Positions 1 through 13,476 are shown, counted from the stretch's first letter. The stretch: DNA of 17,248 bases from Candidatus Methylomirabilota bacterium (GCA_016209725.1 JACQVO010000121.1:1-17248); one strand, 5' to 3'. The notes: generated by a model from the letters alone, not told the origin. Program-made: numbers and translations.

Positions 1-3000
1 GTCCAGCATGTCTTCCCGGCGGACAACTGGTACTTCTGGCTCAAGGCGGCCGAGGACAAGCCGGACGAGATCATCACCGACCTGGAGGACGCCGTCGCGA
101 CTCCGCGGAAGGAGCTGGCCCGCGACATCTTCATCGCCGTCCTGAAGCTGTTCCTGGGGGAGATGCCGACCGAAGTGGAGACGGCGGCTCTGGGGAAAGC
201 CAACTCGCCCGAAGGAAGGGGACCGCAACTGCTGATCTTCATCGCCAAGATGAAAGCGGTCAAGGGCCTTCCCTTGACCGTGGCGGAGCAGGAGGCCCTC
301 CGGGAGGCGGAGGCGTCCCCTGACAAGAAGATTCAGGCGCTCCTGACCCAGATCGCACGGTGTCACACCCTGGAGGGCATCATCGTCACCCTCCGTATCA
401 ACAATCTGCACACCAAGTGGTCCGCCGGAGACCTCTGGCACGTGGTCAGGGCGGTGGGCAACCGCCTCGACCGGATCCTCCTTCCCAAGGTCGAGGGACC
501 GGAGGACATGATCCTGCTCCACCGCATCCTCTCCGCCATCGAGGCGGAGCAGGGCTGGCAGCCGAACGGTATCAAGACGGAGGCTCTCATCGAGTTACCC
601 AGCGCGGTGCGCCAGCTCGATGCCATTTCCCGGTCCACCCCCAGAATAGTCTGCAACATCTTCGGGATCGTGGACTGGACGGCGGCCACGGGCGGGCGGG
701 ACCAGGATCACCAGGCGACCTACGCCCTGTACGGAAGGCTCCGGACCGTCGAGGCTTCCGCCGCCGCCGGCCTGGAGTCTATTGACGGGATCACGCCCAG
801 CCTCCAGCGCCATCGAAGCTTCGTGGATGCCGGCAAGGCGGCCCGCCTCGGCTTCACGGGGAAGTGGAGCGTGAACCCCAACAACCTGGCGGGGAATCTG
901 GACTTCATGGACGGCCGCCGCCCGAGCCGGCGGGACCCCCGTGGGAAGCCCACACTCATCGCGCCGGGCACCTTCGCCCGGGTGTCACCCCGGACTGTCG
1001 CTCCGCCCGAGTACCCGCCCTTTCCCCTGGAAGAGCTGGCGCGATTCGCGCGGCAGAAGCGACCGCTGCTTCCCCCCCGGGTCCTCGAGCTCCGCGATGC
1101 GACCGTCCGCCGATCGGTCGTGCCCGTCGCGGCCGGCCGACCGGACGAGGTGGCTGCGGCTTTGGCCTCGAGCGCGGACGAGGTCATCGTGGATCTTTCC
1201 CCAGTGTGTGGCCCGCAGGGGGGGCCGGCCCGGGCGGCGCTCGTCGAGCGATTGGCAGCCGCGGAAACGGAGAAGACGCTCCTGGCCCTCCAGGCAGACC
1301 CCGGGATGTCCGACTGCTGGGAGGCTCTTGAGGACGTGGTGACGGGGCTCGGCACCCGCGTGGGTGCGTGCGTCCTGCCGGACGTGGACTCTCCGGTGGC
1401 CGTGCGGGTGCTGGACGCGCGCCTGACTGATCTCGAGACCCGCCTTGAGCTTCCCATTGGCCACGTCCGGATCGAGGGACGCATCCGGACGGAGGCAGCG
1501 CTGGACCAGGCGTACGATGTAGCGACGGCCAGCCGGAGGATGTCCGCCCTGATCTTCGACATTCCGATCGCGGAGCTGTTCCGGCAAGGTCGCCTCGCCG
1601 TGGCCGCCAAGACCCGATCCGTGCGGAAGGCAGAGTACCTGCTGAAGGGTCAACTCATCGTGGCCACGTCCGAGGCGGGCATTGACGCGGTGGACAGTCT
1701 CACGCGGCCGGGGAACAGGCTATCGCGCGAGGCGCTGGATGCAGCCAATCACGGGTTCTCGGGCAAGCTGGCCCGCCCCGGCGAGGTGGACGAGGTCAAT
1801 GCGCGGATGGTCCCCCCGCGGGCGTTCATCCACGACCTGATGCCCGTGATCCGGGACACCACCCCGGAGGCGGTTCGCGATGCCCTCTCTCCTGAGGCCA
1901 TCGGCGCCATGCTTCTCAGGCGCTATTCACGGGCATGGGTGGAGCCGTTCGTCAGGACTTGCGCACAGTTGGCCGAACCCTGCTGGAACGGCGCCAGGAG
2001 GATCGAAGAGTTTCCCGCGGTGCTGCGCGCCGAGCTGCTGCGACGGTGGTATCCGGCCTCCATTGAGCGGGCGCTCGAGCCCTTTGAGCTCTTTGCGGTG
2101 GCAGACCAGGACCGGGGTCTGGGCGCCGTGGCATACACCGATTCCTGGCGCGCCAATGCCATCGAGCTGGTGGATGCGGCCACGGCCCGCGTGTACGAGC
2201 ACATCATCCGGACCGCCTGGAAGGCCGGCCTCCTGACGCCGGAAGAGGAGCGGCGGTATCGTCAGGCTTTCGAGCGATTGCGCACGGCCCTCCTGGTGAA
2301 AGAGGCGGCGGGCCTCATGCCCGGCATGCGCCTCCCGGGGTACGCCGTCCCGATCGCCGATTGGATGGTGAAGGTGTTTGCGCAGGCCTCCGGCGACCGG
2401 AACTTGTACCATCTCGACGACGAGTTTGTCGCCCGGGAGTTCGGCCGGGGAGCGATCAAGTTTGACGGCCGGATCGCCCACGGCATCCTGACGCTCCTCG
2501 TCAGCCTGACGGGCCTCCATCGTGTCGCCCCCGGGTGCCGGATTCACAGCGTGGAAGAGGTCCGCTACAAGGCGCCGGTCCGGATCGGCGACGCCGTGAC
2601 CCCGGTATTCTCCGTGGTGGATGTCCACGATAGTCAAATCAGGCTGCGCGTCGAGGCGATCCGGCAGGATGGTCAGGTTGCCATGGAGGGCTCGGTGCTG
2701 GTGACGCCGCCAGCGACGTCGCGGCCGCCCGAGGACGGCACCCGCGTCCCGACAGCAGACCGAATCCGGGCGGCCCGGGAACGCAGTGCCGGCGTGGTGG
2801 CATTCCCCCGACACAAGGAAGCACCTGTCTTTGTCCTGGGGCGCACGGAACGCCAGGAGTTCCAGGCCCGGATCTCTCCGGAGGTGGCCGACGGATACTG
2901 GGCCCTCGTCGGGTCCGCCGGTCCGGCCGCGTGGAACCTGGCGGTCAGTCTCGGCATGATCGCCCACACCTCGGCCAACTTCGCCTCGCCAGGATGGATT

Positions 3001-3213
3001 CTGCTCTCCACAAAGTTGGGGGAACAGCAAGAGCCCATCCGAGAGGGCGACACCCTCACCTCCAGCGCCCAGCTCGAAGTCACGCGGGTCACCCGAGAGA
3101 GGCGCCCCATCTGCCGCATCGTCATGGACGTCCGGAACCAGCACGGCCGCCCGGTCTTCCGCGCCGAGGTCACCAAGCTCGGCCACCCCGGCCTGTGCCG
3201 CGAGCGCCCCTAG
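1..3213 (+). CDS. Multidomain acyl-CoA enzyme, 5'-partial: two CitE/HpcH-like (malyl/citramalyl/citryl-CoA lyase-type) TIM-barrel domains, a helical middle region, then two MaoC-like hotdog (enoyl-CoA hydratase) domains
   Basis: Frame 1 is open from nt 1 with no stop before the listed ATG at 163, so the gene runs off the left edge. The upstream part reads ...EIITDLEDAV, the CitE/HpcH signature. It is followed by RINNL..., LPKVEGPEDM, IELPSAV and GFTGKWSVNP, the strand/loop motifs of that family. A second, more degenerate copy has IVDLSP..., CVLPDVDSP, IEGRIRTEAA and GFSGKLARP. MaoC-type motif ASGDRNLYHLD...RIAHG starts near nt 2389. A second hotdog-like segment spans about 2830-3190. Stop TAG at 3211-3213. 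Confidence 0.7.
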   Translation, partial: VQHVFPADNWYFWLKAAEDKPDEIITDLEDAVATPRKELARDIFIAVLKLFLGEMPTEVETAALGKANSPEGRGPQLLIFIAKMKAVKGLPLTVAEQEALREAEASPDKKIQALLTQIARCHTLEGIIVTLRINNLHTKWSAGDLWHVVRAVGNRLDRILLPKVEGPEDMILLHRILSAIEAEQGWQPNGIKTEALIELPSAVRQLDAISRSTPRIVCNIFGIVDWTAATGGRDQDHQATYALYGRLRTVEASAAAGLESIDGITPSLQRHRSFVDAGKAARLGFTGKWSVNPNNLAGNLDFMDGRRPSRRDPRGKPTLIAPGTFARVSPRTVAPPEYPPFPLEELARFARQKRPLLPPRVLELRDATVRRSVVPVAAGRPDEVAAALASSADEVIVDLSPVCGPQGGPARAALVERLAAAETEKTLLALQADPGMSDCWEALEDVVTGLGTRVGACVLPDVDSPVAVRVLDARLTDLETRLELPIGHVRIEGRIRTEAALDQAYDVATASRRMSALIFDIPIAELFRQGRLAVAAKTRSVRKAEYLLKGQLIVATSEAGIDAVDSLTRPGNRLSREALDAANHGFSGKLARPGEVDEVNARMVPPRAFIHDLMPVIRDTTPEAVRDALSPEAIGAMLLRRYSRAWVEPFVRTCAQLAEPCWNGARRIEEFPAVLRAELLRRWYPASIERALEPFELFAVADQDRGLGAVAYTDSWRANAIELVDAATARVYEHIIRTAWKAGLLTPEEERRYRQAFERLRTALLVKEAAGLMPGMRLPGYAVPIADWMVKVFAQASGDRNLYHLDDEFVAREFGRGAIKFDGRIAHGILTLLVSLTGLHRVAPGCRIHSVEEVRYKAPVRIGDAVTPVFSVVDVHDSQIRLRVEAIRQDGQVAMEGSVLVTPPATSRPPEDGTRVPTADRIRAARERSAGVVAFPRHKEAPVFVLGRTERQEFQARISPEVADGYWALVGSAGPAAWNLAVSLGMIAHTSANFASPGWILLSTKLGEQQEPIREGDTLTSSAQLEVTRVTRERRPICRIVMDVRNQHGRPVFRAEVTKLGHPGLCRERP

Positions 3214-3299: not shown

Positions 3300-3351
3300 T
3301 CCTCGCTGCCGTGCTAGCCTCTCGAGTTGATCTACAGTGGAGGCTCATCCC

Positions 3352-4323
3352 ATGCCCCGTCAAGCGCGCCTCGATGCGCCCGGGACGCTCCACCACGTGA
3401 TCCTCCGCGGGCTGGAACGGGGGCGCATCGTCCGGGACGACACCGACCGGCACGCCTTCGTCACCCGCCTGGCAGAGGTCGTCCAGGCGACCGGGACCAC
3501 GGTGTATGCCTGGGCTCTTCTCCCGAATCATGCCCACCTGCTCCTCCGGAGCGGGAGGGCCGGCCTCCCGACCGTGATGCGGCGGCTGCTCACCGGCTAC
3601 GCCCTCACCTTCAACCGCCGCCACCGCCGGATCGGACACGTCTTCCAAAACCGCTACAAGTCCATCGTGGTGGAAGAGGACCCGTACTTTCGCGAACTGG
3701 TGCGCTACATTCACCTCAATCCCCTCCGCGCCGGCCTGGTGTCTGACCTCGTGGCGCTCGCGCGCTACCCCTGGAGTGGGCATGGCGGCCTGCTCGGCCG
3801 CGTCCCCCAGCCCTGGCTGGCGGCGCCGGCCGTCCTGCGCTGGTTCGGCAGAGCCGCCCGGCAAGCGCGGCAAGCCTACAGCCGGTATGTGGCCGAGGGG
3901 AGGGCGCTTGGCCGCCGCCCCGAGCTGGTCGGCGGGGGCTTGGTGCGCTCTGCGGGCGGCTGGGCCGTCGTGCAGGCCTGGCGCCGGCGGGGGGAGGCCG
4001 TCGCCGCAGACCCGCGGATCCTGGGGACAGGCGAGTTCGTCGAGCGCGTCGTGGCCGAGGCGGACCCGCGGCATCGCCCGGCACCCAGGGGCCGGCGGCC
4101 GGAGGCCATTGCCCGGGTATTCCGCACGGCCTGCAAGAAAACCGGGATTGAAGAGGGGGAGCTGCGGACCGGGAGCCGGCGCCGGGCAGTCGCCCGCCTG
4201 CGGGGCGTGGTAGCGAAGCGGCTTGTGACGACGCTTGGCCTTTCCCTGGCCGACGCCGCCCGGCAGCTCGGGGTCTCCACCTCGGCCATCTGCCGGGTGG
4301 TGGGGAAAGCCGGGGGACCATAA
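3352..4323 (+). CDS. HUH-Y1 (IS200-like / REP-associated tyrosine transposase-like) protein with C-terminal helix-turn-helix
   Basis: MPRQARLDAPGTLHHVILRG... N-terminus. HUH motif in LPNHAHLLL. Candidate catalytic Tyr in FQNRYKSIVV. YIHLNPLRAGLV is typical of this family. The C-terminal LGLSLADAARQLGVSTSAICRVV is HTH-like. ATG at 3352 is preferred over the GTG at 3337 because GGAGG (3339-3343) sits 8 nt upstream. Confidence 0.8.
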   Translation: MPRQARLDAPGTLHHVILRGLERGRIVRDDTDRHAFVTRLAEVVQATGTTVYAWALLPNHAHLLLRSGRAGLPTVMRRLLTGYALTFNRRHRRIGHVFQNRYKSIVVEEDPYFRELVRYIHLNPLRAGLVSDLVALARYPWSGHGGLLGRVPQPWLAAPAVLRWFGRAARQARQAYSRYVAEGRALGRRPELVGGGLVRSAGGWAVVQAWRRRGEAVAADPRILGTGEFVERVVAEADPRHRPAPRGRRPEAIARVFRTACKKTGIEEGELRTGSRRRAVARLRGVVAKRLVTTLGLSLADAARQLGVSTSAICRVVGKAGGP

Positions 4324-4347
4324 GTCAATTTCGGAAACAACGTCCCC
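4320..4347 (-). repeat. 28-nt repeat, copy 2 (right inverted repeat, inverted orientation)
   Basis: ataagtcaatttcggaaacaacgtcccc is the reverse complement of copy 1 with one mismatch. Confidence 0.9.
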
Positions 4348-4366
4348 TATCTTGTGGGATGGGCAG

Positions 4367-4894
4367 ATGGGTTCTGGCCAGGAACCGCCGCCGGCACTCA
4401 GGGAGTTCAAGCAGTTCCTCGAGTTCCTCCAGGGTCTGTGGGCCATGCTCGCCGGGGTCTCGGTCGTCTTCCCGCTGTCCAATACGCTCGCCCAGATCAT
4501 TCCGCTGGCCCAATGGACTGACGGCGGGTTTGCCTATCTGTCGCCTCCTGTGGTCACAGGCGTGACGACTCTCGCGTGTCTCTTCATCATCCTGTGGACC
4601 TTTGGGAAGCGCGAGGAGATGCGGAGCCACCGCACCTGGGACTCGCTTCCTCGGCAAGCAGGACGGTCCTTTGTGCTGGGGATAGCAGGGCTTGCCGTGT
4701 ACTTGGTGGGCCACTACACCGTGAAGGAGGATTTCTACTTCCGGGTGCTGGGATGGGGAAGCGACGATCTGCGGCGCATCGGCGGGGATCTGGTGTTATT
4801 GATGGCCTATGGCAGCTTCTTTGCCTTGGCGACGCGGGCCTTTCTTCTCCTGGGACTGCGGGAGTACTTGAGAGAGAGGGTTGAGGCCTCTTAG
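4367..4894 (+). CDS. Small integral membrane protein (about four predicted TM helices), function unknown
   Basis: Hydrophobic segments: LWAMLAGVSVVFPL, VVTGVTTLACLFIILWTF, SFVLGIAGLAVYLVGHY, LVLLMAYGSFFALATRAFLLLGL. The internal ATG at 4367 is chosen because the listed start at 4235 would overlap the transposase 3' end and the repeat. Third-codon positions are visibly less GC-biased than in neighbouring genes. Confidence 0.6.
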   Translation: MGSGQEPPPALREFKQFLEFLQGLWAMLAGVSVVFPLSNTLAQIIPLAQWTDGGFAYLSPPVVTGVTTLACLFIILWTFGKREEMRSHRTWDSLPRQAGRSFVLGIAGLAVYLVGHYTVKEDFYFRVLGWGSDDLRRIGGDLVLLMAYGSFFALATRAFLLLGLREYLRERVEAS

Positions 4895-5492: not shown

Positions 5493-6320
5493 ATGTTTAC
5501 GCGCATCCACCATGTCGCCGTCGCGGTTCGCAGTATGGAGCAGGCGCTCCAGTTTTACCGCGATATGCTGGGCCTGCCTGTGGGGAAACGGGCCACGGTG
5601 GCGGACCAGGGGGTCCACGCGGCCCTGCTGCCCATGCAGGACGGCGAGATCGAGCTGTTGGAGCCGGCCGATCCGGCGGGGGGCGTGGCGCGCTTCCTGG
5701 AACGCAGGGGAGAAGGCCTCCACCACCTCTGCTTCGAGACCCCGGATGTCGCCGCCGCCCTGGCGTGGGCCAAATCCCTCGACCTGCCCCTGATCGACCA
5801 GGCGCCGCGCCCCGGCCTGGCTGGGATGATCGCCTTCCTGCACCCCAAGGCGAGCCACGGCGTTCTGGTGGAGATGGCCCAGCCGATCTCCCCGCCGAGC
5901 CACCCTAAAGCGGTGTCCGCCGGCATCGGTGCGGTGGGCTTCGAGACCGTGTACGTGGCGACCAAAGAGCTTGCCGGCGCGGCCGCCACGTTCGCCCGGA
6001 ACTTCCACGCCTCGGTGGGGACAGCCGGGGATGACCCCCACTTCGCCTCGAAGAACGTCGTGGTCTCGGTGGGGCACAGCCGGGTCACGTTGCTGGGTTC
6101 GACCGATCGCGTATCGCCAGTCGGGTGTTTCCTTGCGGACCGGGGCGAGGGATTGTTCGGCGTCTGCCTGCGGGTGGCGGATTTCACTGAGGCGGTCCGG
6201 TATCTGGAGGAGGCGGGCGTTCTGACCGAGATGCACGATCGGCACGCGACCAGGCCCCTGGCACGACTCGACCCCGCTCGGACCCACGGCGTCAACCTCT
6301 TCCTGTGCCCCCGCGCCTGA
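5493..6320 (+). CDS. mce: Methylmalonyl-CoA epimerase-like VOC (glyoxalase-fold) protein, double length (two VOC modules)
   Basis: The N-terminal half, IHHVAVAVRSMEQALQFY...GLP...QGVHAALLP...IELLEP...VARFLERRGEGLHHLCFETPD, matches the methylmalonyl-CoA epimerase pattern. The C-terminal half (VGFETVYVAT...GEGLFGVCLRVADF) looks like a second, diverged VOC module. Confidence 0.75.
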   Translation: MFTRIHHVAVAVRSMEQALQFYRDMLGLPVGKRATVADQGVHAALLPMQDGEIELLEPADPAGGVARFLERRGEGLHHLCFETPDVAAALAWAKSLDLPLIDQAPRPGLAGMIAFLHPKASHGVLVEMAQPISPPSHPKAVSAGIGAVGFETVYVATKELAGAAATFARNFHASVGTAGDDPHFASKNVVVSVGHSRVTLLGSTDRVSPVGCFLADRGEGLFGVCLRVADFTEAVRYLEEAGVLTEMHDRHATRPLARLDPARTHGVNLFLCPRA

Positions 6321-6456: not shown

Positions 6457-7569
6457 GTGGACACGCTGCTCCAGCAGATCCAGGCGTTCCTGTCGCTCCC
6501 CAGGGAGGCCCGGACGCGCCAAGGGCGCGAGGCGCTCCTCCAGGCCCTTGGGGTGCCCCAACCCTCCCGCTTCATCGAGGAGGTGTGGACCAGCCAGTGG
6601 GAGGCGGGGATCGATCGCCTGCTCGACCCCGCCAATACCCGGATCCGCCCCCTGGAGCCCACCGACTTTCACTTCAAGTGGGCCCTGGAAGCGTTCAACG
6701 GCCTGCCCGCCCCGGTCCGGGCGCGACTCTTCACCATGAAGATGGAGGCGAATGGTCTCCGGGGGCCGGTCCTGGCGCTGCTGGATGCGGCGGGCCTCTC
6801 CACGCACGCCTTCGAGGTTACGGATCTCGTGGCGCTTTCCAAGGTCCACGCCGAGGCGGCCGCCACCGTCCGCATCCACGACGGCCGCACCTGCCAGTGC
6901 GAGCTGTCTCACTTCGCCCCCGAGGCGGAGGCGCTGTACGCCGGCGCGGCGCGGCTTTTCCGCCTGCGCACCGCGACGACGTACATTCACCCCCTTCCGA
7001 CGGGCCGCCAGATCCTGCTGGAAGTCCCCTTGCACGGGATCCGTCTCGACGACGAGGACTTACCGCAAGAGGAGATGGGGCGCCTTTGGCCGTTGGCCAT
7101 CCGGGGTGTGGCGCGTCACGACGCGCTGGGCGACGTCCTGGGGACCATCCTGCGCGATCCGCACCACATCCTGACCGGGTCAGGCGAGGTCGTCTCGATT
7201 CACAACTACGAGCTGTTTCACGACATCGGCGGATTCCGCTTCGGGTTCGTCGAGCCGATCTTTCTCTCCCTGTGGCGGAGACTGCGCGGGCCGGATCGCG
7301 GCGAGGAGCGTGCCCCCCTCCGCCGGATGTTCGAGGAGTATCGCAGGGCCTATGTCGAGAAGCGGCAGGAGATTCAAGTACGCTGGAGCGAGCTGGAGGC
7401 GTATCTGACGGCGCACGGGCAGGCGATCCGGGAATACTTGAAGGGGCAGCAGGACTGGTCGGAAGTGGTGGCTGCCGTCCGGGAACGGGCATTCCGCGAT
7501 CCCGCCCAGTGGGTCCGGACGCTGTTGGAACCGTACCGGGAATCCTACCCGGACCTCCCCGAGGTTTGA
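6457..7569 (+). CDS. Hypothetical soluble protein, 370 aa, no family recognised
   Basis: GTG start at 6457 is preceded by GGAAGGAGG (6443-6451). Amino-acid composition is balanced, unlike the Arg/Pro/Gly-rich overlapping frames. No TM segments and no motif I can name. Confidence 0.6.
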   Translation: MDTLLQQIQAFLSLPREARTRQGREALLQALGVPQPSRFIEEVWTSQWEAGIDRLLDPANTRIRPLEPTDFHFKWALEAFNGLPAPVRARLFTMKMEANGLRGPVLALLDAAGLSTHAFEVTDLVALSKVHAEAAATVRIHDGRTCQCELSHFAPEAEALYAGAARLFRLRTATTYIHPLPTGRQILLEVPLHGIRLDDEDLPQEEMGRLWPLAIRGVARHDALGDVLGTILRDPHHILTGSGEVVSIHNYELFHDIGGFRFGFVEPIFLSLWRRLRGPDRGEERAPLRRMFEEYRRAYVEKRQEIQVRWSELEAYLTAHGQAIREYLKGQQDWSEVVAAVRERAFRDPAQWVRTLLEPYRESYPDLPEV

Positions 7570-9919: not shown

Positions 9920-9990
9920 TCGTTCCACACCTCATCCGCAAGCATCTCGGCCAGTCGGTAGATTCGCAGACCCTTAAGACCCTCGGCCAT
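9871..9990 (-). pseudogene. Truncated four-helix-bundle (23S rRNA intervening-sequence protein / Avd-like) gene, N-terminal about 25 codons only
   Basis: ATG at 9990 is preceded by GGGAGGGAG. MAEGLKGLRIYRLAEMLADEVWNE resembles the N-terminal helix of a four-helix-bundle subfamily (..L.vYqLaeeLaDeiW..). The frame then runs into the octamer array (SPDRRVARLPGCPIA) and stops. Confidence 0.45.
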
Positions 9991-10027
9991 TTCCGCTCCC
10001 TCCCATGGATTTTCTTGTCTCCCCCCT

Positions 10028-10067
10028 GATTGCCCGAGTGCCAGAGTGCCCGATTGCCGGTTGCCAG
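10028..10067. repeat. Array of 5 tandem octamers (gattgccc gagtgcca gagtgccc gattgccg gttgccag), inverted relative to 9856-9919 (right arm)
   Basis: The reverse complement of these units (gggcaatc etc.) matches the left-arm units. For example, ccggcaatcgggcac vs caggcaatcgggcac is 14/15. Confidence 0.8.
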
Positions 10068-10070
10068 CCT

Positions 10071-10691
10071 TCAGGGATTGATATTGATGAACAACCGGAG
10101 GGGGATGAAGCCTTCGGCGTTGCGGACGCGGCCCTGGATTCCCCGGAAATGGGCCGAAGACCGGGCGATGTCCAGGATGGACAGTCCCTCGATATTGGTC
10201 TTGCCAACCTGGGAGCCGTGGGCCTGGAGGGTGGCGATCTTGTCTTCCAGGACACTGTCCACGTCCACGAAGACGGAGGGGGAGAAGTTCTGGGTGGTGG
10301 GTCCCTCGTAGAACAGGACGTTTCGCGTGTACCGGGTGGCGGTGATCGTGGAGGTGGCCAGGTGGCGGTGATCCTGGTGGGTGTCGTCGTGATAGTGGAC
10401 GAAGATGAAGTCCGGCTGTGCCTCGTGGATCACGCGCTCGACGCGCTGGATGATTTCGCGGTCCAGGGGGATGGCGGTATCGGGGTATCCCCCCCAGAAC
10501 AGCTTGGAGGCCCGGAGGATTTGGGCAGACTCCTCCTGCTCCCGCCGCCGGATGGCGCCGTCGCCGCCGCCGCTCCCGTCGGTCATCAGCAGCAGGAAGA
10601 CCTGGTGTCCCTGCCGGGCATACTTGATCAGGCTTCCTCCGCAACCGATTTCGATATCGTCCGGGTGGGCGCCGATGGCCAGGATGCGCAT
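10071..10691 (-). CDS. PIG-L/LmbE-family N-acetylglucosaminyl deacetylase
   Basis: MRILAIGAHPDDIEIGCGGSLIKY... is the canonical AHPDD.E.G.GG motif, and HQDH lies downstream. SD GAGAGGTGA precedes the ATG at 10691. Confidence 0.85.
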   Translation of the reverse strand: MRILAIGAHPDDIEIGCGGSLIKYARQGHQVFLLLMTDGSGGGDGAIRRREQEESAQILRASKLFWGGYPDTAIPLDREIIQRVERVIHEAQPDFIFVHYHDDTHQDHRHLATSTITATRYTRNVLFYEGPTTQNFSPSVFVDVDSVLEDKIATLQAHGSQVGKTNIEGLSILDIARSSAHFRGIQGRVRNAEGFIPLRLFININP

Positions 10692-10702
10692 AGGTCACCT
10701 CT

Positions 10703-10734
10703 CTCACGCAGAGACGCAGAAGCGCAGAGGAGAA
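10703..10734. repeat. Arm of the GxxExxY cassette containing 3 tandem octamers (cgcagaga cgcagaag cgcagagg)
   Basis: ctcacgcagagacgcagaagcgcagaggagaa. It matches the reverse complement of 11182-11210 at 24/27 positions ungapped, with the first 15 identical. Confidence 0.85.
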
Positions 10735-10785
10735 CTACGGCCTATTCCCAATACGACGGACACCATCCCTGATGATCAGTGCACC
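10735..10785 (-). pseudogene. Vestigial 3' end (last 16 codons plus stop) of a second, diverged GxxExxY gene
   Basis: The minus strand reads GALIIRDGVRRIGNRP*, against GAPVIKDGIRRIVNRL* in the intact gene 65 nt away. By hand alignment, 38/51 nt are identical to 10800-10850. Confidence 0.55.
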
Positions 10786-10799
10786 ACAGCCGAGCAAAA

Positions 10800-11177
10800 C
10801 TACAGCCTATTCACAATACGGCGGATGCCGTCCTTGATGACTGGCGCCCCAAAGTTGATGAGGGGGCCCAGTCTGTAGTCGAGCAGGCGAAGGTAGGTCA
10901 GGAGCTGCTTTGAGTGAACGCGGGAAAGCTCCTCCACGGATTTCAGCTCGACGACGACGCAGTGTTCTACGATCAAGTCTGCTCGAAACCCCTCCTCAAA
11001 GCGGATTCCCTCGAACTCGATGGGAACAGGCTTCTGACGCTCGACCTTCAGACCTCGCCTCCCCAACTCATGAGCCAAAACCACCTCGTAGACGGACTCA
11101 AGCAATCCCGGCCCGAGTGTGCGGTGGATGTGAAAGGCCGCATCCACGATCGTGCCTGAGATTGAATTGAGATCCAT
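10800..11177 (-). CDS. GxxExxY protein (PD-(D/E)XK nuclease-fold, PDDEXK_3-like)
   Basis: GPGLLESVY is the GxxExxY signature. FRADLIVEHCVVVELKSVE is a D...E.K nuclease-like core. Size about 125 aa. The ATG at 11177 overlaps the WbqC TGA by one nt (TGATG). A GTG at 11180 is an alternative start. Confidence 0.85.
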   Translation of the reverse strand: MDLNSISGTIVDAAFHIHRTLGPGLLESVYEVVLAHELGRRGLKVERQKPVPIEFEGIRFEEGFRADLIVEHCVVVELKSVEELSRVHSKQLLTYLRLLDYRLGPLINFGAPVIKDGIRRIVNRL

Positions 11178-11920
11178 CACCTTCTCTGCGTCTCCGCGTC
11201 TCTGCGTGAGACGTCAACGTGGCATTCGAGCGGCGACCAGGAGCGCCCCGATCGGATGATCGGCAGGCTCTCCGGGCCGCAATTGAGGAGCAAATCTATC
11301 ACTGCCAGGGTGGAAACGAAAGGCGGATATCGCTGGGGGTACTCGGGATGCCGGTAGGCCTGGACCTGGATGGCAATGCCTGCCTGGCTGAAGCGGCTGA
11401 CGTCCATGTAGGATGGGCCGGTCGGACCGGCGAGATACGTGGTGCCGCCCACCGCGCGGCAGAGGTCGATCAGGCGTCCGGTGGGGTCCTCCTGCGCCTG
11501 CAGGCTGGAGGCCAGGATACGGGGGGTTGTGATGCCCAGGTGCTGGCAGAGCACGTCCGTGACGGCGACGTTCAGCTCGCTCAGGCGGGCCCAGGGCCGC
11601 TCCAGCAGGGCCTGGAGGGCCGGCCCGAGGGGATCCCAAAACGGTGCCCGGCCGTAGTGCAGGCGGAGGGCCTGGCAGTGTTTGCGCTGCCAGTCCGTCC
11701 GGGGATTGATCTCCACCCGGTCAATCCGTTCGGGAAAGCGGTCGATGATGGGCACGGTCAACCATTGCCAGCCGTCCTTGGTGCGAATGCGGTTGCGGTT
11801 CTGCCACTCGTGCTTCGTGAACTGGACCGTGTCCAGGAGGATGAAGACATCGGCCGAGTCCAGCTTGTCGAAGTACCCCAGCCAGGGAAGGTAGTGCGGT
11901 TGATGGATGGCGACCTTCAC
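11177..11920 (-). CDS. WbqC-like family protein (polysaccharide-locus protein of unknown reaction)
   Basis: MKVAIHQPHYLPWLGYFDKL...FILLDTVQF...WQNRNRI matches the WbqC-like family N-terminus. GTG start at 11920 overlaps the upstream stop (GTGA). The last about 11 codons (SRRDAETQRR*) are encoded by the cassette arm. Confidence 0.8.
   Translation of the reverse strand: MKVAIHQPHYLPWLGYFDKLDSADVFILLDTVQFTKHEWQNRNRIRTKDGWQWLTVPIIDRFPERIDRVEINPRTDWQRKHCQALRLHYGRAPFWDPLGPALQALLERPWARLSELNVAVTDVLCQHLGITTPRILASSLQAQEDPTGRLIDLCRAVGGTTYLAGPTGPSYMDVSRFSQAGIAIQVQAYRHPEYPQRYPPFVSTLAVIDLLLNCGPESLPIIRSGRSWSPLECHVDVSRRDAETQRR
11182..11210. repeat. Arm of the GxxExxY cassette containing 3 tandem octamers (tctctgcg tctccgcg tctctgcg), inverted relative to 10703-10734
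   Basis: ttctctgcgtctccgcgtctctgcgtgag, read directly from the sequence. Confidence 0.85.
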
Positions 11921-13476
11921 GGGCTGCCTCCGCGCCCCGTCCTGACAAAGATCGGGTTGCTCAGGATCTGGTGCCCGCCCGGACCGCGGACCTCCAGGCG
12001 ATAGAACAGACTGGTCTCCGCCGGGAGGTCGGATTCACTCCATTGGAGGGTGACGGGGGTCTCCCCGCGCCCCGAGTGGACCACGCTGCCGTTCCGCACC
12101 AGGAGCGTCTGGATCCCGATCCGCCGTTCCCCCGTGGCACGGATCACGGCGCGCACCTCGGGCCTGTCGCCGGCACGCAGCGCCAGCCGATCGCCCGCCT
12201 CGGCGGCGGGGTGGTCGGGGAGAATCACCTGGAACTGGTCGAGGGCCAGGCCAATCTCCGGGGTGCGCTGCAGGGCATAGAAGCGTCCCTTGCGCAGGGC
12301 TTCGAGAAGCGCGGCCGGGTCCTTGCGGTCCACCAGGAAGACCGTTTGGACGTCGCCGAATCGCTTGCCCGCCTGCCCTTCGCGATGGTAGGCCGCCTCG
12401 CCGATCGCCCAGGCAGGAACAGCCCGACGGCCACTGAGATAATCGGCCAGGAGCCGGTCCCACCCCCCGCCGGGCTGGGTGAACGTCGTGGTGTCCTCGT
12501 AGACGCCGCCGAAGGCGGTGAACCGATCCGTCCGGAGGAGATCGGACGGGTAGGGATCGGTGTGGATCGTCGCCTGCATCCGTGCCACGGTGACCAATTG
12601 GTGATCCCGCGCCTCGGGCATGGACCAGACCGCCAGGCCGCCCCGCGCGGCGACGAAATCAATCACCGCCTGGTGCGGCCGCAGCCCCGCCTCCGAATCA
12701 TACGGGGAGACCGGGGGCGTGCGAAAGGGAAAGTTGTTCGCCAGCAGGGCTGCCCCGATCGTCAGGCAGAGGACGCCGCAGCCTGTGAACCGGCGCTCCA
12801 CGGTGAACTTGACGTGCTGGAGGCGAACGAGTCGCCTGCGCCGAACCCGGAGCAGCCACACCCCCGGCACCGCCAGTGTGACGGGGGAGAGGAGCCACAG
12901 GCTTCCAAGACCCCAATGGGCGGCGTTGGCGTTTCCGACGACGGGGAGGTCCCGGTAATCCTCGGGCCGATTCAGGCCGAGGACCAGGATGTTCTTCTGC
13001 CCGTTATACATCGTCAGCGTGCCCTGGAACAGGTTGCCCGTCCAATAATAGTGCGGGATCACCTCCGCGCCGGGAATGAGGACCACATCCTGCTGGCGGG
13101 CATTGGCGGCCCGGACTGCATCCAGGAACGGTTCGGGTCCCTGGCTCATGAGCGAGGGGTATTCCACCCGGTAGCGCAGGAGGTTCCGGAGAGGGGGCAG
13201 CCCGTATTCAAAGCGCTGCAGGTGATTCTCGGTCAGGAAGATGGCATCGACCCCCACGACGCGCGCACGGGCCACCAGTCCGTCGAGGGTGAAATCGCCG
13301 GAGCTCCACGTGGTGTGCGCGTGCACGACGGCGGGGATCGGGCGCAGGGGGCCGGCAGCGTGAAGCGGTGTGGCCGCCAGCATGACCAGACCCATCGCCA
13401 GCCCCAGATATGCGACTCTCCGTCCGGTCCGGCGTCCTAACCCCCATTCGAAATTCCTTGGCGACCTTGGCGTCAT
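11917..13476 (-). CDS. Membrane-anchored PHP-domain-like metal-dependent phosphoesterase (tentative)
   Basis: N-terminal signal/anchor (RRTGRRVAYLGLAMGLVMLAATPLHA). VVHAHTTWSSGDFTLDGLVARARVVGVDAIFLTENH resembles the PHP H.H...S.D motif block. Internal hydrophobic segments near LGSLWLLSPVTLAVPGVWLL and CGVLCLTIGAALL. No clear SD, so the start is uncertain. Confidence 0.5.
   Translation of the reverse strand: MTPRSPRNFEWGLGRRTGRRVAYLGLAMGLVMLAATPLHAAGPLRPIPAVVHAHTTWSSGDFTLDGLVARARVVGVDAIFLTENHLQRFEYGLPPLRNLLRYRVEYPSLMSQGPEPFLDAVRAANARQQDVVLIPGAEVIPHYYWTGNLFQGTLTMYNGQKNILVLGLNRPEDYRDLPVVGNANAAHWGLGSLWLLSPVTLAVPGVWLLRVRRRRLVRLQHVKFTVERRFTGCGVLCLTIGAALLANNFPFRTPPVSPYDSEAGLRPHQAVIDFVAARGGLAVWSMPEARDHQLVTVARMQATIHTDPYPSDLLRTDRFTAFGGVYEDTTTFTQPGGGWDRLLADYLSGRRAVPAWAIGEAAYHREGQAGKRFGDVQTVFLVDRKDPAALLEALRKGRFYALQRTPEIGLALDQFQVILPDHPAAEAGDRLALRAGDRPEVRAVIRATGERRIGIQTLLVRNGSVVHSGRGETPVTLQWSESDLPAETSLFYRLEVRGPGGHQILSNPIFVRTGRGGSP

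Follow-up and report, generated by a model that had tools for sequence, protein, structure and literature searches.

The window described here, a stretch of 17,248 nucleotides from a Candidatus Methylomirabilota bacterium (GCA_016209725.1 JACQVO010000121.1:1-17248), represents the first 17,248 bases of contig C50 in a metagenome-assembled genome (MAG; G000) of 2.9 Mb, which is 77% complete and divided into 305 contigs. Its first gene had been described in an earlier note, made from the sequence alone, as a fusion of two CitE-like lyase domains with two MaoC hydratase domains in a single polypeptide of more than 1070 amino acids. Frame 1 is indeed uninterrupted from base 1 to the stop codon at 3211-3213 and encodes 1070 aa, with no start codon because the window begins at the contig start. 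From the N-terminus the protein consists of a first lyase-type TIM barrel (D1), a Pro-rich connector, a second barrel (D2), a helical insert, a lid and two hotdog domains (H1 and H2). Coordinates are collected in Table 1; residue numbers refer to the window protein P0001, and the addition of 19 gives the numbers of the orthologue P0002.

Alignment to orthologues led to a gap of only the first 19 residues, which is the full extent of the 5' end missing from the window copy. When 5.8 billion proteins were searched, another 19 clusters with lengths of 1078-1119 aa were retrieved at 73-89% identity and 100% query coverage, on independent contigs and from several sources. The G+C content at third codon positions (GC3) of 0.85 is in line with the coding frames of the window, and comparison with two same-genus orthologues revealed purifying selection on all segments, with dN/dS values of 0.04-0.06 for the lid, the most constrained segment of the gene, 0.13-0.16 for D1, 0.22-0.23 for D2 and 0.14-0.31 for the hotdogs. 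A join of two or more genes by a frameshift or an assembly chimera might be suspected from the position of the gene at the contig edge of a fragmented MAG. This was rejected, and its probability is practically negligible, as the 19 independent full-length clusters stem from different samples, the same architecture is found at ~35-40% identity in another family and inside giant Omnitrophota proteins, the gene shows no change of codon bias along its length and purifying selection acts on each of its segments (dN/dS 0.04-0.31). Therefore, from the full-length clusters on independent contigs and the near-complete window copy, the fusion is genuine, and a four-domain enzyme of this kind is conserved among uncultured bacteria of NC10 (Methylomirabilota).

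The first lyase domain was confirmed as CitE-type by a match of residues 110-293 to Pfam HpcH_HpaI (PF03328; E 3e-23, 82.7 bits, cut-off 25), and its best solved relatives are the malyl-CoA lyases (MCLs) 5UGR (E 6e-16), 6KIN, 4L7Z and 4L9Y. Residues conserved in the CitE-like superfamily and malate synthase are, in the numbering of MCLR from R. sphaeroides, Glu44/Asp45, Arg76, the Mg2+ ligands Glu141 and Asp168, and Asp299, with Asp299 located on a C-terminal lid that is swapped onto the adjacent subunit of the trimer (PMC3832036, Zarzycki and Kerfeld). The five catalytic residues E29/D30, R132, E198 and D225 of D1 are invariant in 38 sequences from two NC10 lineages and the Omnitrophota giants, and the Arg-Glu-Asp spacing is 66 and 27 residues, compared to 65 and 27 in MCLR. 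Likewise invariant is a TAATGGRxQ loop after D225, at the location where MCLs touch the lid of the neighbouring subunit. D1 has no lid of its own; the barrel is followed by the Pro-rich connector. The long insertion noticed earlier in this domain was also borne out, with 102 residues between the Glu-Asp (ED) pair and the catalytic Arg, compared to 31 in the R. sphaeroides MCL. It is lineage-specific, being long in this genus, shorter in family f4 and absent in P0023 and P0025, and it was predicted as four helices (pLDDT 85-95) in an AlphaFold2 model of P0002 (1089 aa; 38-sequence alignment; mean pLDDT 86.9, pTM 0.84).

Comparison of the D2 profile (residues ~358-611) with the D1 profile gave an hhalign probability of 97.8% (E 1.3e-12, 156 columns), and the D2 profile also aligns to solved malyl-CoA lyases (5UGR, E 8e-13). 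Against these solved lyases, the ED pair is missing from D2, the Arg is replaced by Q/K (variable Q/K/R), the Glu by S/R and the Asp by P. All catalytic residues have thus been lost from D2 in every lineage aligned, in agreement with the degenerate lyase-like module assumed before. The helical linker that was said to follow it can be retained only in part: aa 612-685 form a helical insert, but residues ~686-770, and hence much of the supposed linker, are in the model the C-terminal lid of the CitE fold with its conserved catalytic Asp. Superposition of P0002 residues 377..760, comprising D2 and the lid, as one unit on the whole malyl-CoA lyase subunit 4L9Y_A 2..315 led to Z 27.3 and a root-mean-square deviation (rmsd) of 3.2 A with 294 of 314 residues aligned (VIA-align), and the next-ranked structural matches were other malyl-CoA lyases, CLYBL and CitE. 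By this superposition D744 of P0002 (D725 in the window) is placed at Asp299 of MCLR; the residue is at least 90% conserved, and the make-up of the lid from helices and a beta-hairpin agrees with the description of MCLs (PMC3832036).

This sole lid of the fusion lies after D2. As its conserved catalytic Asp cannot serve a barrel without a metal site, we infer that D2 has been retained to bear a lid which closes over D1 in cis, within the same chain. The invariance of the TAATGGRxQ loop fits such a closure, because the loop sits at the MCL contact site for the neighbour's lid. Carrying the active-site lid thus seems to be the only conserved job of D2.

H1 matched Pfam MaoC_dehydratas at residues 782-879 (E 6.8e-10, 39.1 bits, cut-off 27), so that both families named before were found above cut-off, whereas D2 and H2 were missed by Pfam alone. 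The hydratase-2 motif contains an Asp/His pair and a Pro. In H1 the pair is invariant and the Pro is replaced by Leu or Arg. The profiles of H1 and H2 gave only a weak sequence signal (hhalign 78.8%, E 1.7e-5), and H2 was recognised by its fold: model residues 789-1083 match the double-hotdog hydratases 4E3E from Chloroflexus (Z 23.9) and 8HGN, the mesaconyl-CoA hydratase MeaC (Z 23.7, rmsd 2.8, 262 residues aligned). Two MaoC hotdogs are therefore present as proposed, but H2 is degenerate and only the first hotdog carries an Asp/His pair. A Foldseek search with the whole model was dominated by fungal fatty acid synthase chains, matched via the hotdog. When a hotdog profile built from 18 modules was compared to the PDB, the best matches were PhaJ (R)-enoyl-CoA hydratases (5CPG, E 1e-23; 1IQ6, E 8e-13), and in double hotdogs of the MFE-2 type (1S9C, 5I7N, 4V12) the part aligned with H1 is the C-terminal hotdog. 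The hotdog module thus has the fold of a mesaconyl-CoA hydratase, yet no detectable sequence relative among these enzymes, and its catalytic hotdog is the first and not the second.

In a genome of the same genus (G015), whose fusion is 79% identical, crotonyl-CoA carboxylase/reductase (Ccr), a KASIII-like gene, an acyl-CoA dehydrogenase (ACAD), the large subunit of an acyl-CoA mutase and the fusion follow each other on one strand. The same four genes, 88-90% identical to those of G015, are found at the end of contig C86 of the MAG studied here, the mutase gene being truncated there. Because these are the genes that precede the fusion in G015, C86 can be placed with near certainty upstream of the window, at a distance of ~1.4 kb. 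A third genome (G003) has the order of the window, namely mutase, fusion, a RAYT-like gene, an epimerase and a gene for a 370-aa protein. Ccr on C86 scored 555 bits with TIGR01751 (cut-off 378). For the ACAD the best solved relative is (2S)-methylsuccinyl-CoA dehydrogenase 6ES9 with 419 bits, compared to 358 for the next match; the enzyme keeps R252, R421, A285, F287 and E535 and has Ser at Glu380. The mutase has the Tyr89/Arg207 pair of methylmalonyl-CoA mutase (MCM), where the aligned HcmA has Ile and Gln. In MCM this pair binds the substrate carboxylate. The operon enzyme was read as a probable dicarboxyl-CoA mutase; an assignment as 2-hydroxyisobutyryl-CoA mutase, suggested by the best PDB match, was rejected due to Tyr/Arg in place of Ile/Gln. 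It may be an ethylmalonyl-CoA mutase from an unusual lineage, and no B12 small subunit belonging to it was located. The epimerase is 71% identical to the copy at the same position in G003. The usual methylmalonyl-CoA epimerase has ~130-150 aa and dimerises. With its two VOC domains, recognised as two NCBIfam stretches, the protein encoded here would be the second enzyme of this operon in which a tandem chain has taken the place of an oligomer interface. The KASIII-like protein may supply the pathway as an acetoacetyl-CoA synthase of the NphT7 type.

In a set of 41 related genomes, the fusion and Ccr were each detected in 10; nine have both, one the fusion only, one Ccr only, and 30 neither. 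As the carriers are kin from two lineages, this co-occurrence counts as about two independent associations and not as 41. Isocitrate lyase was not found above cut-off in five fusion-bearing genomes (G000, G015, G023, G037, G040), with positive controls and with G000 being 77% complete, and malate synthase was detected among these five only in two f4 genomes. Genomes of family f4 carry Ccr elsewhere in the genome. They also encode a paralogue without hotdogs (734-755 aa), in which only the active barrel, the dead barrel and the lid are present (P0028; L015, G031:C32 9796-12000, minus strand), indicating that the three-part lyase unit is an evolutionary module.

A HMMER search of 1.84 billion representatives gave only 16 proteins at E < 1e-30, comprising, besides orthologues, giant Omnitrophota proteins, and in a scan of GTDB genomes Omnitrophota and numerous MAGs of Methylomirabilota/NC10, CSP1-5 among them, were found to carry the fusion. 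The proteins P0024, P0026, P0032 and P0171 from Omnitrophota MAGs (2,600-5,509 aa) combine several enzymes of the ethylmalonyl-CoA (EMC) pathway and the module in single chains, in the order mutase, B12 domain, ACAD and fusion-type module in P0024 (2974 aa). The survey of homologous fusions and their neighbourhoods that had been suggested thus led to a module found in two NC10 lineages and in Omnitrophota, together with the Ccr operon of G015, and the fusion is not a one-off. Fragments of the fusion on short contigs binned as Nitrososphaera, Nitrospinae and Elusimicrobia (L042, L043, L044) reflect either mis-binning or a wider distribution; in the case of Elusimicrobia, a distance of ~4 kb separates the hotdog module from the lyase part on the contig. 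In the f4 genome G037 a TPP enzyme, a xylose-isomerase-like TIM-barrel protein and an IclR regulator are encoded ~3 kb from the fusion (L014, C1 12555-16154, minus strand). This set looks like glyoxylate carboligase/hydroxypyruvate isomerase and would consume glyoxylate made by the lyase.

Table 1. Features of the fusion gene, its surroundings in the window and the linked genes on other contigs. Positions are nucleotides of the window unless a locus is named.
Feature	Position	Strand	Basis or remark
Whole fusion gene	1..3213	+	5'-truncated at contig start; 1070 aa + stop; ~19 aa missing
D1, active CitE/malyl-CoA-lyase-type TIM barrel	1..900 (aa 1-300)	+	Pfam HpcH_HpaI, PDB malyl-CoA lyase matches
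D1 catalytic set	E29/D30, 85-90; R132, 394-396; E198, 592-594; D225, 673-675	+	
Helical insertion in D1, between helix alpha1 and Arg strand	154..375 (aa ~52-125)	+	Alignment gaps, model
Pro-rich connector	901..1071 (aa 301-357)	+	Sequence, alignment, model
D2, second CitE-like barrel, pseudo-enzyme domain	1072..1833 (aa 358-611)	+	Profile comparison
Helical insert between D2 and lid	1834..2055 (aa 612-685)	+	Alignment, model; largely absent in family f4
CitE C-terminal lid, motif GLGAVAY...ELVDAATA	2056..2310 (aa ~686-770)	+	Superposition, helices + beta-hairpin
Candidate catalytic lid Asp D725	2173-2175	+	Superposition on MCLR Asp299
H1, catalytic MaoC hotdog	2311..2715 (aa 771-905)	+	Pfam MaoC_dehydratas; PhaJ 5CPG profile match
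H1 motif SGDRNLYH	D799, 2395-2397; H804, 2410-2412	+	D and H invariant
H2, second, degenerate hotdog completing double-hotdog fold	2758..3198 (aa 920-1066)	+	hhalign, model
IS200/RAYT-like Y1 transposase gene, between fusion and epimerase, not part of enzyme	3337..4323	+	Pfam Y1_Tnp E 3.7e-8
Methylmalonyl/ethylmalonyl-CoA epimerase, 275 aa, two VOC domains	5493..6320	+	TIGR03081 162 bits vs cut-off 115
Conserved 370-aa protein after epimerase	6457..7569	+	GC3 0.87; 78% identical copy at same position in G003
FabH/KASIII-family gene between Ccr and ACAD	L021 (G000:C86) 9955-11007	+	Conserved in G015
Short methylsuccinyl-CoA-dehydrogenase-like ACAD, 385 aa	L021 (G000:C86) 11076-12233	+	
Split acyl-CoA mutase, large subunit only, 553 aa	L020 (G015:C64) 631-2289; L021 12532-12903	-; +	
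Standalone CitE-like gene next to dapF	L051 (G000:C141) 3756-4832	+	Only other CitE-like gene found in this MAG

From this context the fusion is most likely, with a probability of roughly 65%, a beta-methylmalyl-CoA/malyl-CoA lyase joined to a mesaconyl-CoA hydratase at the end of an EMC pathway operon. This reading is favoured because the operon holds Ccr, an ACAD similar to methylsuccinyl-CoA dehydrogenase (Mcd), a dicarboxyl-type mutase and an epimerase, and because the fusion co-occurs with Ccr. Of the several pathways listed before, the gene neighbourhood selects this one and renders the others less likely; that lyase and hydratase catalyse consecutive steps, as had been proposed, follows from the same assignment. 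We infer the substrates from these data; a channelling of intermediates would be conceivable. In such a sequence of reactions the neighbouring ACAD would deliver mesaconyl-CoA, which the C-terminal double hotdog would hydrate to beta-methylmalyl-CoA via Asp799/His804 of H1. D1 would then cleave beta-methylmalyl-CoA into glyoxylate and propionyl-CoA, with Mg2+ held by E198/D225, E29/D30 in the second shell and R132 as base, and by analogy with Mcl1 it probably also condenses glyoxylate and acetyl-CoA to malyl-CoA. In ordinary CitE-like trimers the lid Asp comes from a neighbouring subunit (PMC3832036). Here D2 would be a dead paralogue, kept as the bearer of the only lid, which supplies the catalytic Asp D725, and the tandem may be described as a single-chain pseudo-dimer in which the lid of D2 closes over D1.

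Several observations weigh against this assignment. In this MAG, the genes placed upstream are tied to the fusion by synteny with G015, as the gap between the two contigs is unassembled, and in family f4 none of the Ccr, ACAD and mutase genes adjoins the fusion. The ACAD of the operon has no counterpart of the N-terminal extension of ~170 aa seen in known Mcd, and its residue at Arg376 is His. As a whole, the mutase resembles HcmA more than MCM, in a comparison that included no Ecm reference. In addition, D1 is far below every NCBIfam equivalog cut-off (RipC_Ccl 107.6 vs 375, citE 85.2 vs 443, haloarchaeal malyl-CoA lyase 54.3 vs 500), and MeaC 8HGN and 4E3E are not among the 48 PDB sequences matched by the hotdog profile at E <= 1. 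A crotonase-type role of the hotdogs is possible because their best sequence matches are the PhaJ enzymes named above, and the main rival reading is accordingly that they act as the (R)-3-hydroxybutyryl-CoA dehydratase (CroR-type crotonase) of the same pathway, so that a non-consecutive early step would be joined to the terminal lyase. This reading would also be suited to P0026 (2640 aa) from Omnitrophota, where the module is followed not by an ACAD but by a Ccr-like domain, which uses crotonyl-CoA. We nevertheless regard it as unlikely: in P0024 the module stands directly after the ACAD, the double-hotdog fold is that of MeaC and 4E3E (Z ~24), and fusion partners usually catalyse adjacent steps. 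Furthermore, the fusion is the only double-hotdog MaoC protein in the five fusion-bearing genomes, leaving no other to serve as mesaconyl-CoA hydratase (Mch), while a crotonase could be supplied there by separate single-hotdog, PhaJ-like genes, the other MaoC open reading frames having 149-222 aa.

A role in the degradation of itaconate or citramalate, with an itaconyl-CoA hydratase fused to an (S)-citramalyl-CoA lyase as in RipB/RipC or Ich/Ccl, would explain that the top NCBIfam name for D1 is the itaconate-pathway lyase RipC/Ccl (E 7.7e-31) and that D2 is weakly similar to the beta chain of an acyl-CoA lyase from P. aeruginosa (8KHL/9NZB). It is distinctly improbable given the score far below the cut-off for that family, the malyl-CoA lyases as best solved relatives of D1, the co-occurrence with Ccr, and operon partners (Ccr, Mcd-like ACAD, dicarboxyl-type mutase, epimerase) that include no CoA transferase. 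Mcl and Mch are also used in the 3-hydroxypropionate bi-cycle and the methylaspartate cycle, and the module might serve one of these instead; with Ccr, the signature enzyme of the EMC pathway, in the operon and co-occurring with the fusion, the chance of this appears very small, although no search aimed at the marker genes of these two cycles was made. A similarly small chance is left for D2 as an active second enzyme, for example a malyl-CoA thioesterase like Mcl2, which would give three activities in one protein. Known EMC pathways do have the two CitE paralogues Mcl1 and Mcl2 (PMC3832036), D2 is under purifying selection (dN/dS 0.22), and malate synthase was not found in G000 or G015. However, enzymes of the Mcl2 group depart from the catalytic set only by a Glu in place of the lid Asp and still have the ED pair, the Arg and the Mg ligands (PMC3832036), whereas in D2 none of the latter residues is present in any lineage, and the lid residue is Asp. 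D2 as a thioesterase of the Mcl2 type was thus rejected.

Compared to known enzymes, the fusion has the TIM barrel, the ED pair, the catalytic Arg, Glu and Asp and the lid Asp in common with Mcl1/MCLR from R. sphaeroides (4L9Y), the M. extorquens enzyme (5UGR) and MCLC from Chloroflexus (4L7Z/4L80), and it also shares with Mcl1/MCLR the Arg-Glu-Asp spacing, the lid of helix and beta-hairpin and a predicted role in the EMC pathway. It differs in that its active barrel is lidless, with the lid placed after a second, dead barrel of the same chain, in the ~70-aa helical insertion after helix 1 and in the fused hydratase; the identity is only ~23%, and the fusion is below all equivalog cut-offs. 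With Mch/MeaC (8HGN) and the Chloroflexus enzyme (4E3E) it shares the double-hotdog MaoC-type fold (Z 23.7-23.9 over 262 residues) and the expected position in the pathway, but there is no sequence similarity at E <= 1, the catalytic hotdog comes first and the nearest sequences are single-hotdog PhaJ hydratases. The (3S)-malyl-CoA thioesterase Mcl2 of R. sphaeroides has the EMC context and the combination of a CitE-like domain with a MaoC hydratase in common with the fusion, yet keeps the catalytic residues that D2 has lost and has a lid Glu instead of Asp (PMC3832036). In the Omnitrophota giants (P0024, 2974 aa; P0026, 2640 aa; P0171, 5509 aa) the same module with the same invariant residues is present at 31-36% identity as one block of a larger chain with mutase, B12, ACAD or Ccr-like domains, which in NC10 are separate operon genes. 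A literature search gave no publication on an Mcl-Mch fusion, or on the EMC pathway in Rokubacteria, Methylomirabilota or Omnitrophota. The fusion would combine chemistry already known with a tandem arrangement not described before, in which an active barrel, a dead barrel and a lid are joined to a non-orthologous hydratase.

Besides the enzymes discussed so far, the window encodes the RAYT-like transposase, of which a 55%-identical copy is located at the same position in G003 (L017 4025-4984, minus strand). The gene is for this reason regarded as a long-resident or domesticated insert and not as a recent hop. For the 370-aa protein no Pfam or NCBIfam family was found and an Atlas search gave hypothetical proteins only; it may be an unrecognised component of the pathway. 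Beyond this gene an unrelated polysaccharide cluster follows. Elsewhere in the MAG, a second cluster (L022, G000:C291 1-4160, plus strand) encodes an HdrD/GlpC-like Fe-S protein, an ACAD and a mutase large subunit with Tyr at the first specificity position and Gln at the Arg207 position, pointing to a different type of mutase. The standalone CitE-like protein on C141 was examined as a candidate for the malyl-CoA thioesterase, and no specific support was obtained; it is below all equivalog cut-offs and generically CitE-like.

As a tentative scenario, to which we would give somewhat less than even odds, tandem duplication may have made a normally trimeric, domain-swapped enzyme self-sufficient, with a lidless live barrel and a dead barrel that donates the lid Asp in cis. 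Joined to a non-orthologous, PhaJ-derived mesaconyl-CoA hydratase, this portable unit might have let the EMC pathway condense into an operon in NC10 and then into the megaenzymes of Omnitrophota. If our reading of the fusion holds, it would be a clear natural example of a pseudo-enzyme domain kept only for its active-site lid, by which an obligate oligomer became a single-chain unit, and it would suggest that mesaconyl-CoA hydratase arose a second time, in non-orthologous form, from a PhaJ-like hotdog. A compact fusion of the two enzymes could also be of practical interest, because synthetic CO2-fixation cycles make use of the Mcl-Mch pair. For the organisms themselves, it would mean a C2/C4 assimilation of the ethylmalonyl-CoA type in uncultured Methylomirabilota (NC10), for which full-text searches gave no describing paper, and it would make sense of a unit found repeatedly in the giant fused proteins of this pathway in Omnitrophota.

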